64,000 nucleotides of DNA from contig JAAXUA010000005.1 of the NCBI GenBank assembly GCA_013336275.1, positions 13,863 to 77,862 on the forward strand. Direction: 5' to 3'. Source of the stretch: Candidatus Falkowbacteria bacterium (lineage in GTDB: Bacteria; Patescibacteriota; Patescibacteriia; Patescibacteriales; GWE2-39-37). The notes beneath the pieces were generated by a model. It did not search any database. It saw only the letters and a program-made list of their open reading frames with translations, and was not told where the DNA came from. Made by a program: the position numbers and the translations under genes. This document shows positions 11,499 through 60,746 of this stretch, in pieces (the stretch's first letter is position 1; every line of letters starts with the position of its first letter).

Positions 11499-12287
11499 AT
11501 GAATCTGACAATCATTAACGACTGCCGTGACGACAATGCCAAAGTCCGGCAACTGGCCCGGGCCAAGAGCCTGATCGGCCACGAGGCCGCATTCATCGGA
11601 GTAGCTAACGACCTGGAGGCAGCAGGCTGTATCATCGACGTGCTTGATGCTTATGGCGAGGCGGGCGGTACGATCATTGCCAACGTCGCGCCGCGCAACG
11701 GCGGAGGCAAGCGCTGGCCCAACGGTACGCCGTTCGCTTACGCTCGCATCGGCAACAGCCTGGTCGTGGCCTCGATCAGCGGGCTGACTTGGTCACTCGT
11801 CCGCAAGCTCGGGTTGGCCCGATCGATCGAGGTGATGGATATCCCGACCGTGCTCAAGGAATTGGCCGAGGCAGGCGTCCTGGATTCTGATCTGATCGAA
11901 CCGATTACCAAGAGCCAGTTCAGAAGTTATGAGTTCTTGCCCCGCGTCGCGGCCTTCTTGCTTTCCGGCGGTGCAGTTCCGAGCGAAACCGTCTCTCTCG
12001 ACGAATTGGATCAGGCGGAACCGGCTGTCTGGTGGGCGGATAATTTCGGCAACTGCAAAACCAGTTTACTGGCGCAAGAGGTTTCGTTTAAGGCAGGGAG
12101 CAGCGTAAGTACTATCTGGGGAGAATTGCCAGGGTATGAACGGCTCAAGGACGTGCCTGACGGCGAGCCGGCCATCATCATCGGCAGCTCCGGTTTCGGG
12201 TCAGCGCGCTTTCTTGAATTGGTTGTCCAAGGCGCAAGCGCGGCCCAGCATTTCGGGGTAAAAAGCGGCCAGAGCATCCTCGCCTAA
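11499..12287 (+). CDS. DUF62 / SAM hydroxide adenosyltransferase (chlorinase-fluorinase) family protein
   Basis: 262 aa from internal ATG 11499 (the track ORF starts at 11418 inside the inverted repeat); ANVAPRNGG, WWADNFGNCKTS (DxFGNxxT) and SSGFGSARFLELVVQGASAA C-terminal motifs. Confidence 0.7.
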   Translation: MNLTIINDCRDDNAKVRQLARAKSLIGHEAAFIGVANDLEAAGCIIDVLDAYGEAGGTIIANVAPRNGGGKRWPNGTPFAYARIGNSLVVASISGLTWSLVRKLGLARSIEVMDIPTVLKELAEAGVLDSDLIEPITKSQFRSYEFLPRVAAFLLSGGAVPSETVSLDELDQAEPAVWWADNFGNCKTSLLAQEVSFKAGSSVSTIWGELPGYERLKDVPDGEPAIIIGSSGFGSARFLELVVQGASAAQHFGVKSGQSILA

Positions 12288-12289
12288 TC

Positions 12290-12317
12290 TTGATTTTTGG
12301 CGGCTTAATGCTACAAT
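12290..12317 (+). promoter_or_regulatory. sigma70-like promoter
   Basis: TTGATT (12290-12295), 16-nt spacer, TACAAT (12312-12317). Confidence 0.5.
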
Positions 12318-12323
12318 ATAGGT

Positions 12324-12594
12324 GTAGGAAACAACGTTCTTACCAGAAAAGTTCCACCGAAGACTGATGCAAGTTTTGGATCAAACTATAAGACATTGGC
12401 AGGCCGTTTTAGTCCCGGGCTGAGGCTCGGTCTATAGGCCCACAAGGGTGAACTGGCGAGAGACGGATTGTTCAGAGGAATCCGAGTAATCCGTCACGAA
12501 CCAAATTTCGCTTCGAGCGGCTTGTCCGCACGGCGCGAAAACCTATTTCTCTCTTTAGCCAATTCTTGATCAGCCATTTGGTGGAACTTTTTTG
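12324..12594 (+). ncRNA. structured non-coding RNA of unknown class (about 270 nt)
   Basis: No ORF. Four nested helices: AAAGTTCCACC 12348-58/GGTGGAACTTT 12580-90, CTGAT 12364-68/ATCAG 12569-73, ATTGGC 12395-400/GCCAAT 12558-63, GCCGT 12403-07/ACGGC 12530-34. Inner 8-bp GACGGATT/AATCCGTC hairpin; terminal U-tract. Confidence 0.5.
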
Positions 12595-12606
12595 CATATG
12601 AAGATT

Positions 12607-12677
12607 CGGGGTATCGTATAGTGGCAGTACGCGTGGCTGGGGGTCATGTAGCTGCGGTTCGATTCCGCATACCCCGA
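12607..12677 (+). tRNA. tRNA-Pro (anticodon GGG)
   Basis: Cloverleaf folded by hand: acceptor CGGGGTA/TACCCCG, anticodon loop CTGGGGG, T-arm TGCGG-TTCGATT-CCGCA, discriminator A; CCA not encoded. Confidence 0.9.
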
Positions 12678-12688
12678 CAGGGAAATGT

Positions 12689-12814: not shown

Positions 12815-14047
12815 ATGAGAGGAAATAGCATCAAGAGATTGGTAGATATGCAGGGAGTTATCGCGATGGTGTTGGCTGGCGGTCGCGGTGAAAGGCTGAT
12901 GCCTTTGACGGCCGAAAGAGCCAAACCGTCGGTCCCGATAGCTGGCAAGTATCGGATCATCGATTTCATCATGAACTCGCTGGTCAATTCCGGATTGAAC
13001 GAAATCAGAGTCCTGATCCAGTTTAAGTCCCAGCCTCTGTACCGCCACATCACCGCCCTGTATCCGTCGGCCCCGATCCACAACCGTTTTATCGAACCGG
13101 TGCCGGCTCAGATGCGGGTCGGCCAAGGATGGTATTCCGGTACCGCAGATGCCGTATATCAGAACAGCTACATGCTGGAAGATTTCGGTTTCGAAGTAGC
13201 GGCCATATTCTCGGGTGACCACATCTTTGTCGTCGACGTCAGCCAGATGTACGAGTATCACTGCCATAAAGAGGCAGACTTCACCATCGCGGCGATACCG
13301 ACCCCGGTCGAACAAGCGGCCGGACAACTGGGCGTCATTGTCGTCGACGAGCAGGACCGGATCATCGGCTTCGATGAGAAGCCGGCCGTGCCCAAAGAGA
13401 TTCCTGGCAAACCGGGCTGGTGTTACGCCTCGATGGGCAACTATCTGGCGAACATCCCCATCCTTACCGAACTGTTGAAGGAAGACGCTCAAAACGAGGA
13501 ATCAAGCCATGATTTCGGCAGAGATGTCATTCCGATGATGCTCGACCGTGGCCTGGCTGTCTATGCTTATGATTTCCACACCAACAAGATCGCCGGTCAG
13601 GAGGAGCCTTACTGGCGCGACCTCGGAACGATCGCTTCGTACCACGCTGCCAACATGGATGTCTGCAGCGTCGATCCGGTTTTCAACCTGTACAACAGGA
13701 TGTGGCCCTTGCGTTCGCCGGCCGATAACTCGCCGCCCCACAAAGGCGGACTGGGCTCCCGGCTCGACAACTACCTCATCAGCGGCGGCTGCATCGTCAA
13801 CAAGTCGGAAATCTACAGTTCCGTACTGAGCCCGTTCGTCCGCGTCGAAGCCTCTCAAGTCATGGAGAGCGTCATCTTCTCTAATGTGAACATCGGTCCG
13901 GGATCCAGGCTCAAACGCTGCATCGTCGACAAGAACGTGCGCATCCCTCCGGGAACGATGATCGGCTTCAGCGCCGAAGAAGACTCCGCACGCGGCCTGG
14001 CTGTCGTTGACGGCATTACGGTCGTTCCCAAGAGCTTCCAATTCTGA
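12815..14047 (+). CDS. glgC: glucose-1-phosphate adenylyltransferase
   Basis: 410 aa; VLAGGRGERLMPLTAERAKPSVPIAGKYRIIDF N-terminal signature, left-handed beta-helix C-terminus; AAAGGAGGG upstream. Confidence 0.92.
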   Translation: MRGNSIKRLVDMQGVIAMVLAGGRGERLMPLTAERAKPSVPIAGKYRIIDFIMNSLVNSGLNEIRVLIQFKSQPLYRHITALYPSAPIHNRFIEPVPAQMRVGQGWYSGTADAVYQNSYMLEDFGFEVAAIFSGDHIFVVDVSQMYEYHCHKEADFTIAAIPTPVEQAAGQLGVIVVDEQDRIIGFDEKPAVPKEIPGKPGWCYASMGNYLANIPILTELLKEDAQNEESSHDFGRDVIPMMLDRGLAVYAYDFHTNKIAGQEEPYWRDLGTIASYHAANMDVCSVDPVFNLYNRMWPLRSPADNSPPHKGGLGSRLDNYLISGGCIVNKSEIYSSVLSPFVRVEASQVMESVIFSNVNIGPGSRLKRCIVDKNVRIPPGTMIGFSAEEDSARGLAVVDGITVVPKSFQF

Positions 14048-60214: not shown

Positions 60215-60286
<72 letters not shown>

Positions 60287-60302
60287 CACGTTATTTAAAT
60301 TT

Positions 60303-60385
60303 GGGTCGATACCAAAGCGGTCAACTGGGGCAGACTGTAAATCTGCTGGCTTTCGCCTTCGCATGTTCGAATCATGCTCGGCCCA
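60303..60385 (+). tRNA. tRNA-Tyr (anticodon GTA, long variable arm)
   Basis: Acceptor GGGTCGA/TCGGCCC, anticodon arm GCAGA-CTGTAAA-TCTGC, 14-nt variable arm, T-arm GCATG-TTCGAAT-CATGC. Confidence 0.9.
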
Positions 60386-60471
60386 CCGAAACAGTCTTTG
60401 CTTGCTTGCGCCTACCTTCGGCTGAAATGCCGGCAACCGAGCGGACTGCATATTAAATCGAAACAACGCAT

Positions 60472-60627
60472 ATGAGCCAAGATAACATGATCAAGCTGGA
60501 GTGCACCGAGTGCAAGACGATCAATTATTTTTCTCGGAAAAATAAGAAGACTCTGAAGACGCGCTTGGAAATGAACAAGTTCTGCAAGCACTGTGGCAAG
60601 CACACCGGCCACAAAGAAACCAAATAA
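60472..60627 (+). CDS. rpmG: 50S ribosomal protein L33 (51 aa, below track threshold; may start at the second ATG 60487)
   Basis: Own translation [51 protein letters not shown] (CxxC...CxxC L33 pattern). Confidence 0.88.
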
Positions 60628-60639
60628 AAGAAATTTGCT

Positions 60640-60672
60640 CAGAGCTCAAAATTATTTTTGAGCTCTGATTTT
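60640..60672 (+). terminator. hairpin plus short T-run after rpmG
   Basis: CAGAGCTCAAAA/TTTTGAGCTCTG 12-bp perfect stem, then ATTTT. Confidence 0.6.
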
Positions 60673-60743
60673 GCGGGGTTAGTATAATGGTAGTACGTGG
60701 GTCTCCAAAACCTATGGCGAGGGTTCGATTCCTTCACCCCGTG
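60673..60743 (+). tRNA. tRNA-Trp (anticodon CCA)
   Basis: Acceptor GCGGGGT/ACCCCGT (G1-U72), anticodon arm TGGGT-CTCCAAA-ACCTA, T-arm GAGGG-TTCGATT-CCTTC, discriminator G. Confidence 0.9.
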
Positions 60744-60746
60744 CAA

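Follow-up and report, generated by a model that had tools for sequence, protein, structure and literature searches.

To our knowledge, structured bacterial RNAs of more than 200 nt that combine multi-way junctions with invariant junction nucleotides are rare. Such RNAs have in the past proved to be ribozymes, ribonucleoprotein scaffolds or large self-assembling RNAs. GOLLD and ROOL, which are 500-800 nt long, typically borne by prophages and widely scattered, often lie beside tRNA genes, and typical 6S RNAs measure roughly 160-200 nt. Tandem precursors matured by RNase P include the eukaryotic MALAT1-mascRNA pair and, in bacteria, 4.5S RNA and the spacers of tRNA operons. The Patescibacteria have minimal genomes and, as far as we know, almost no characterised non-coding RNAs. 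The putative RNA gene described here lies immediately upstream of a tRNA-Pro(GGG) gene in a 64,000-nt stretch of DNA from a Candidatus Falkowbacteria bacterium (assembly GCA_013336275.1, contig JAAXUA010000005.1, positions 13,863-77,862 of the forward strand), which is called the window below.

The region analysed, window positions 12290-12594 on the plus strand, had been singled out in a preliminary description, made from the sequence alone, as a structured RNA of no recognisable class. Judged from sequence and comparison, positions 12324-12594 (+) are a genuine non-coding RNA gene of an undescribed family with a narrow known distribution. The region has what is generally expected of a structured small RNA gene, namely its own promoter, conserved sequence and covarying structure, and of open reading frames (ORFs) just a 33-aa TTG ORF (+) and a 41-aa ORF (-) overlap it in the window. 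At the family level the RNA is new, in the sense that no known family fits. When the window sequence and two distant homologues, L019 and L022, were searched against Rfam 15, the RNA was unmatched both at the gathering score and at E<=10, which supports the preliminary description on this point; the weak, unrelated matches (small nucleolar RNAs, SL2, leaders) included none common to the lineages. The whole reading favoured here, which adds to an undescribed family a stable, trans-acting role and two routes to the 3' end, is held with moderate confidence.

Homologues and covariation

Homologous intergenic regions, on which the preliminary description had proposed a covariation analysis, do exist and do show compensatory changes. 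Eight distinct homologues were available from three lineages: the window, L001, L004, L005, L017 and L006, which make up the window's clade; L019; and L022 (=L023). They were retrieved through their neighbouring genes, and the distant L019 and L022/L023 were reached by way of more distant neighbours encoding prephenate dehydrogenase (PDH). L009 and L010 carry near-duplicates of the L001 RNA. Members of the window's clade share 84-91% identity in the RNA and 68-79% in the flanking DNA that encodes prephenate dehydratase (PDT), PDH, DUF62 and GlgC. An RNA under stronger constraint than neighbouring enzymes, in genomes as minimal as these, likely does something that is needed. With an nhmmer profile built from the window's clade only, L022 was recovered (E=2.5e-15), as were both ends of L019 (E=4.3e-5 and 0.004). 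The related loci searched, 280 kb in all, gave no further homologue; the one additional forward match was a locus (L011, E=0.014) with a chance 18-mer.

The predicted transcript is about 270 nt long in the window and about 230-300 nt in the relatives. In the window it reaches a minimum free energy (MFE) of -101 kcal/mol; dinucleotide shuffles gave -74 +/- 4.8 (z=-5.6), and none of the 200 folded as well. The distant homologues L019 and L022 fold with z=-6.2 and -7.6, so that the three lineages range from -5.6 to -7.6. The minus strand also folds well (z=-4.8), and the assignment to the plus strand relies on the promoter, the U-tract and the many conserved G-U pairs. One architecture is common to all lineages: a rod whose ends are closed by helix P1, a conserved irregular segment, and a branched head made up of P3, PX, P4 and P5. 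Its parts in the window, with the promoter and the downstream tRNA, are as follows.

12290..12317 (+): promoter of the RNA, with -35 TTGATT at 12290-95, a 16-nt spacer and a TG-extended -10 TACAAT at 12312-17, from a consensus scan
12324..12343 (+): predicted 5' hairpin of 7 bp with loop ACAACG (RNAalifold columns 6-12 with 19-25), window's clade only
12344..12373 (+): P1 5' strand (A-tract, GUUCCACC, GACUGAU, bulged G, CAAG), pairing with 12565-12594
12374..12400 (+): conserved 5' block (UUUUGGAUCAAAC, a variable 8-nt linker, AUUGGC), the most conserved 5' part
12402..12440 (+): P3 hairpin domain (GGCC/GGCC, UAG/CUA, distal stem CCGGGC-UGAG-GCUCGG), containing AGTCCCGGGCT
12443..12449 (+): PX 5' strand CAAGGGU, overlapping AAGGGTGAA and pairing with ACCU(A)UU at 12541-47; CAAGGG is invariant
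12454..12503 (+): P4 arm, a UGG...CCA base and a GACGGAUU/AAUCCGUC hairpin, lineage-specific in sequence
12506..12540 (+): P5 arm UUUCGC...GCGAAA, abutting the PX 3' strand
12541..12564 (+): PX 3' strand ACCUAUU, linker UCUCUCUUUA and conserved GCCAAUU
12565..12594 (+): P1 3' strand, ending in U6 at 12588-93 and pairing with 12344-12373
12595..12606 (+): 12-nt spacer between RNA and tRNA, too short to hold a promoter
12607..12678 (+): tRNA-Pro(GGG), from ARAGORN and Rfam; CCA is not encoded

Covariation was counted by hand, helix by helix, over the homologues, and the figures below are counts and not probabilities.

Outer P1: 96% of cells canonical, two-sided changes 7/18
Inner P1: 91% of cells canonical, two-sided changes 2/7
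P3 distal stem: 98% of cells canonical, two-sided changes 5/6
PX: 88% of cells canonical, two-sided changes 1/7

Taken over P1, P3 and PX together, two-sided changes that preserve pairing affect fifteen base-pair positions. Giving each 5' strand the 3' strand of another lineage, on paper, tells the same story, for P3 strands form 23/24 pairs with their native partners and at most 16/24 when mismatched, and P1 strands form 65/71 pairs natively and at most 58/70 when mismatched. Overall, the junction and internal-loop sequences are conserved and the helices covary.

The closing helix had been put at 11 bp. Those 11 bp are indeed perfect, AAAGTTCCACC (12348-58) being the exact reverse complement of GGTGGAACTTT (12580-90), but the pairing extends over about 30 bp (12344-12373 with 12565-12594). 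P1 measures 27-30 bp in all three lineages, and its A-rich 5' end pairs with part of the U-tract. Preceding it in the window's clade, the predicted 5' hairpin shows A-U to C-G and G-U to A-U changes in L006 and has no counterpart in L019 or L022.

By way of CAAG/CUUG, P1 runs into the conserved segment, in which CAAG-UUUUGGAUCAAAC...AUUGGC lies opposite UUAGCCAAUU-CUUG, the 3' side reading UU(A)GCCAAUU. CAAGUUUUGGRUCAAAC and AUUGGC are identical in 8/8 sequences save for one A/G, with a linker of 7-8 variable nt between them. The 3' block UUAGCCAAU has two potential partners, UUGG (with CAAAC) and AUUGGC. In model A, AUUGGC is paired to GCCAAU, which creates a bulge of 21 nt; in model B, UUGG is paired to CCAA across a tandem U-U, followed by CAAAC to GUUAG. 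The choice is not settled by covariation because these nucleotides are invariant; one-sided changes in L019 and L022 slightly favour model B. A further alternative helix, GAUCAA/UUGAUC, was rejected, as it is not kept in L022.

The branched head mixes invariant and freely replaced parts. PX is present in the unconstrained MFE fold of L022, where GGGU/ACCU has become GGGG/CCCC (one U-A to G-C, one G-U to G-C, and one C/U mismatch to C-G). Within P4, the 8-bp hairpin noted earlier is there, GACGGATT (12462-69) pairing with AATCCGTC (12488-95), and the pair adjoining the UGG/CCA base is U-A in L001 and C-G in L006. In P5, L006 carries G-C to A-U double changes in both the outer and the inner stem. 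A hairpin occupies the P4 position in all lineages, and the P5 position holds a hairpin of different sequence in L019 and L022; from one lineage to another the two arms differ in length and are unrelated in sequence. On the 3' side of the head, GCCAATTCTTG is identical in all homologues and the pyrimidine linker is kept only within the window's clade.

One side observation concerns P4 of the window's clade (CGGATTGTTCAGAGGAATCCGAGTA, window 12462-12497), which resembles a hairpin in the repeat module that follows tRNA-Pro in L001 (CGGATGGCAGAGAATCCGATGTA, L001:4254-4277). Kinship between the two was considered and set aside: the L001 score of 27 was no higher than the best of 500 shuffles, scores at the other loci lay at the null mean, and the resemblance is probably due to chance.

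Genomic setting and distribution

The promoter, TTGATT-16-TACAAT, stands as first described and is of the sigma-70 type. TTGATT-16-TAnAAT is kept at the equivalent site in L001, L004, L005, L006, L017 and the distant L019, and in L006 it directly follows the terminator of the upstream gene. The tRNA-Pro(GGG) gene lies directly downstream, on the same strand, at every homologous locus where upstream DNA is available, which bears out the adjacency first noted in the window. The protein genes on the 5' side vary by locus, being DUF62, a 118-aa ORF, PDH, threonine dehydratase, or an aminotransferase with tandem repeats. Because the upstream genes vary and tRNA-Pro is constant, the conserved unit is the RNA plus tRNA-Pro and not, as had been supposed, the interval from the DUF62 gene to tRNA-Pro; indeed, the DUF62 gene is not beside the RNA in L006, L017, L019 or L022. 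Nor do the DUF62 loci L002 and L003 (46-51% identical) carry the RNA, and at L018, L020, L021 and L024, which hold PDH neighbours, neither tRNA-Pro nor the RNA lies within reach. The route through GlgC neighbours yielded L006 and otherwise short contigs.

In the window, the upstream flank is a SAM (S-adenosylmethionine) hydroxide adenosyltransferase of the DUF62 type, with PDT and PDH farther upstream; the downstream flank is a GlgC-type nucleotidyltransferase, followed farther on by MscL, a radical-SAM protein, TerC, a protease and an apurinic/apyrimidinic endonuclease. The backbone around the RNA, PDT-PDH...tRNA-Pro...MscL-radical SAM-TerC, is conserved and chromosomal. Public proteins that are 100% identical to neighbouring ones of the window, over an annotated length that is slightly shorter, bear the name Candidatus Falkowbacteria (Patescibacteria). 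The GlgC-like gene (window 12815-14047) has homologues 62-85% identical in the immediate clade; the next homologues listed are 50-58% identical and mostly unnamed, the few named ones being Geobacteraceae, cyanobacterial and Patescibacteria, which hints that glgC may have been acquired horizontally. The sole other RNA genes detected in the window by Rfam and ARAGORN form a cluster of tRNA-Thr(GGU), tRNA-Tyr(GUA) and tRNA-Trp(CCA) at 60215-60744.

Inverted repeats beside a tRNA gene raise the question of whether this is an RNA gene at all. The element could be a relic of the kind left by miniature inverted-repeat transposable elements (MITEs), or another inverted-repeat remnant at a tRNA integration hot spot, or a chance structure. 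Its terminal inverted repeat resembles MITE ends, the 3' side of tRNA-Pro bears integration scars in several loci, and tandem repeats lie just upstream in L022/L023. Against this, the element occurs once in the 64-kb window and once in each locus, sits at the same position in three lineages with a divergence that tracks the neighbouring genes, and lies on the 5' side of the tRNA while the scars lie on its 3' side. The expected pattern is also reversed, for the ends covary freely and the interior is invariant, and both the promoter and the U-tract are conserved. BLAST searches of phage and plasmid collections left the RNA unmatched, and four patterns run against IMG/VR (an 18-mer, a hairpin motif, a two-anchor pattern and a 17-mer core) gave only chance matches inside coding regions. 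An origin of this kind therefore seems very improbable. A metagenome scan with CCTATTTCTCTCTTTAGCCAA returned L001-like copies only, that block being specific to the window's clade.

Several repeats were seen around the homologous loci. Immediately upstream of the RNA promoter region, L023:2740-3142 (and L022:~12070-12330) holds a tandem repeat with a 161-bp period, 2.5 copies, a 98% match and internal hairpins. Downstream of tRNA-Pro(GGG), many loci have a terminator hairpin followed by at least one duplicate, of about 22 nt, of the tRNA 3' end (TTCGATTCCCGGCAGCCYGACA), at the following positions.

L001:4199-4325: tRNA 3'-end duplicates
L009:1270-1395: tRNA 3'-end duplicates
L017:1447-1600: tRNA 3'-end duplicates
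L008:1-290: tRNA 3'-end duplicates
L019:12432-12505: tRNA 3'-end duplicates
L004/L005, downstream of tRNA-Pro: tRNA 3'-end duplicates

To judge from their appearance, these duplicates are attachment-site scars that integrative elements left behind. In L019 the repeat is of the L001 type though the tRNA 3' end of that locus differs, and the window has no such scar. At L008:150-285 and L017:1495-1595 tRNA-Pro-like fragments occur whose T-arm is divided into two halves by an insert of about 95 nt (…GCTGCGG[CAGAAGAGAATCC…GGGGTAA]TTCCGCATACCCCGACA). A group I intron would not fit into this length, and the insert may be the remnant of an integrase crossover.

The 3' end and the tRNA-Pro(GGG) gene

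A U6-7 tract directly follows P1 in all three lineages, and the T6 of the window, at 12588-93, is where the preliminary description had placed the end of a terminator. The tract stands; a local terminator was not recovered there, in that a terminator scan found none at the 3' end of the window RNA, because the helix before the U-tract is long-range and not a local hairpin. In L022 the P1 3' strand also forms a local hairpin, which the scan scored as an intrinsic terminator. There (L022:12689-12710) each outer-P1 strand is self-complementary, so that the 3' strand may fold as a local terminator hairpin instead of as part of the long-range helix; this could be a conformational alternative or a coincidence.

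Between RNA and tRNA, members of the window's clade have a spacer of 10-13 nt and L019 has one of 28 nt, and the scan found no promoter there able to serve the tRNA. In these lineages the tRNA must therefore come from read-through. L022/L023 are differently arranged, with a spacer of about 70 nt that holds a TTGATT-17-TATTAT promoter for the tRNA.

This arrangement invites the view that the RNA serves tRNA-Pro(GGG) in cis, as a 5' leader or attenuator, with P1 and the U-tract acting as a terminator, perhaps a conditional one, and the leader being discarded after RNase P cleavage. The RNA's fixed place directly upstream of the tRNA on the same strand, the short spacers that leave the tRNA to be read from the RNA promoter, and the U-tract that follows P1 in every lineage all accord with such a role, and the two registers in which UUGG or AUUGGC can face GCCAAU could in principle act as a switch. 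That said, a P1 of about 30 bp closing 230 nt is far too stable and long-range for a terminator that responds to a ligand or signal. No anti-terminator pairing is conserved across lineages, GAUCAA/UUGAUC failing in L022, and the T-box and other leader models of Rfam are unmatched. The main argument for a function of the RNA's own over a leader role comes from L022/L023, where the RNA ends in a canonical terminator, the tRNA appears to be transcriptionally separate from it, and the RNA is still conserved. A leader role thus appears unlikely, though it deserves to be kept in mind.

The T-box class also fails on particulars. The RNA has no RF00230 match at E<=10; UGGUGGAAC is a strand of outer P1, replaced in L019 and L022; and the CCC beside P3, a candidate specifier, is not conserved.

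Under the reading favoured here, that of a stable RNA with a role of its own, the 3' end would arise by two routes. A part of the transcripts would terminate at the U6-7 tract after P1. In the window's clade and L019, others would read through into the tRNA, be cut by RNase P at the tRNA 5' end, and have their tails trimmed back to P1. By such read-through the RNA would form a dicistronic unit with tRNA-Pro(GGG). Its constant association with this tRNA also offers an experimental handle, by way of precursor processing and co-expression.

Possible function and comparison with known RNA classes

The RNA would act in trans, as a stable RNA rather than as the leader of an mRNA. Most probably it would serve as a scaffold or recognition surface for a protein partner, with the invariant irregular segment and the junction nucleotides providing the binding surface, and its paired ends would shield it from exonucleases and so confer stability.

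Several points weigh against this reading. The covariation counts rest on about four effectively independent lineages, and for the central junction (models A and B) and for PX the changes of one lineage only provide the support. The known range is narrow and comprises three lineages, sampled in a handful of metagenomes. The ends of the transcript, its stability and its abundance are predictions. Among the neighbouring genes there is no candidate for a partner, in that none encodes an RNA-binding protein, Ro/TROVE, a reverse transcriptase, Cas or an integrase, and those present belong to ordinary metabolism and the membrane. A cis role is possible as well, for the tRNA of the window's clade appears to depend on read-through of the U-tract, which suits a leader or attenuator too.

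A more specific idea places the RNA in a tRNA- or ribosome-biogenesis machine specific to Patescibacteria, as its RNA subunit or as a catalytic RNA, for example a U3-like chaperone of the 16S 5' end or a new ribozyme. The invariant GGAUCAAAC (window 12376-12386) is the reverse complement of GUUUGAUCC, to which the UUGGAUCAAAC block is complementary, and GUUUGAUCC corresponds to the sequence with which nearly all bacterial 16S rRNAs begin at the 5' end (the 27F primer site). The match covers only 9-10 nt and was noticed post hoc; the A-to-G change of L019 would keep a wobble pair. Sites complementary to the conserved block are not enriched in the window, where 16 were found against 22 expected. 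The idea is a speculative one, to which we give little credence. If it were true, the pairing with tRNA-Pro(GGG), the two-junction fold and the invariant UUGGAUCAAAC block would be functional and not incidental.

The remaining possibility is that a universal housekeeping RNA has here diverged to an extreme degree. As first put forward, it rested on short stretches that resemble conserved regions of RNase P RNA, and this resemblance proved spurious. Both quoted motifs are present, AGTCCCGGGCT at 12411-21 and AAGGGTGAA at 12444-52. The first is the distal stem of P3, wholly replaced in L006 (AGUUUUUGGAC), L019 (AAUUUACCUUG) and L022 (AAGUUGAACCG) with pairing kept, and so is not the conserved region I (CR-I) of RNase P. 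The second is not conserved as a whole; the lineages share only its core, CAAGGG, which apparently forms one side of a helix. The remark that the topology leaves no place for the P4 pseudoknot was sound, for all supported helices are nested and nothing lies between the GCCAAUU-CUUG strand and the P1 3' strand. No RNase P model (bacterial A or B, archaeal including type T) matched the window, L019 or L022 at E<=10.

The only housekeeping candidate not firmly excluded is 6S RNA, a rod with paired ends that binds RNA polymerase. Its long closing stem with small bulges, a conserved irregular region about 30-55 nt from the 5' end of the rod and a strong promoter are all found here, and 6S RNAs can escape covariance models in divergent phyla. 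In addition, no rRNA, RNase P, signal recognition particle (SRP), 6S or transfer-messenger RNA (tmRNA) gene was found in the 64-kb window by Rfam or ARAGORN, which says little for a genome of about 1 Mb. Against a 6S identity, the distal half (P3, PX, P4, P5) is branched and not a single terminal stem in the folds of all lineages, whether from single sequences or consensus, and the conserved irregular region is not the two-sided central bubble of an unbranched 6S rod. Models of 6S, 6S-like, RNase P, SRP and tmRNA were unmatched at E<=10 in three lineages, and a housekeeping RNA would sit oddly with a known range of three narrow lineages that is not phylum-wide. A diverged housekeeping RNA is thus a distinctly doubtful explanation.

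Other classes drop out more simply. The preliminary description had seen no SRP, tmRNA or T-box signature, and the Rfam models agree. For SRP RNA (4.5S or large), the sole GGAA-containing hairpin is P4, which is specific to the window's clade; ARAGORN found no tmRNA. A role as a CsrA sponge with GGA loops, judged by eye, is set aside, the GGA of the conserved block being lost in L019. Group I introns are frequent in tRNA genes of Patescibacteria (PMC13011429). Here RF00028 was unmatched, the downstream tRNA-Pro is intact and the element has its own promoter. A literature search on Patescibacteria/CPR with RNase P RNA, 6S RNA, structured RNA or RNA motif gave nothing relevant beyond that paper on tRNA group I introns (PMC13011429).

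Set beside the described systems, the RNA shares something with each. Like RNase P RNA (RF00010/RF00011), it has ends that pair in the manner of a P1 helix, and it adjoins a substrate of RNase P; there are also short literal matches to CR-I-like (AGUCC-GGGCU) and J11/12-like (AAGGGUGAA) strings. Unlike RNase P RNA, it is about 250 nt long and has no landmarks of the specificity or catalytic domains. Like 6S RNA (SsrS; RF00013), it has its own promoter, ends that pair in a long closing stem with slight irregularities, and, a few tens of nt from the end, conserved nucleotides outside the helices; it differs in its greater length (about 230-300 nt), in a branched head with two three-way junctions and no two-sided bubble, and in its narrow distribution.

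The tandem precursors that join a structured RNA to a tRNA or tRNA-like element, of the MALAT1-mascRNA type, are alike in working only: RNase P cleavage would make the 3' end, and a U-rich tail pairs with an upstream A-tract. There is no sequence or structural homology, the processing proposed here is inferred, and in L022 RNA and tRNA are apparently transcribed as separate units. GOLLD and ROOL are set apart from this RNA by its size of about 250 nt, its place in a conserved chromosomal backbone and its lack of any Rfam match. What it shares with them is a complex multi-junction fold, conserved junction nucleotides, orphan status and a position beside a tRNA gene.

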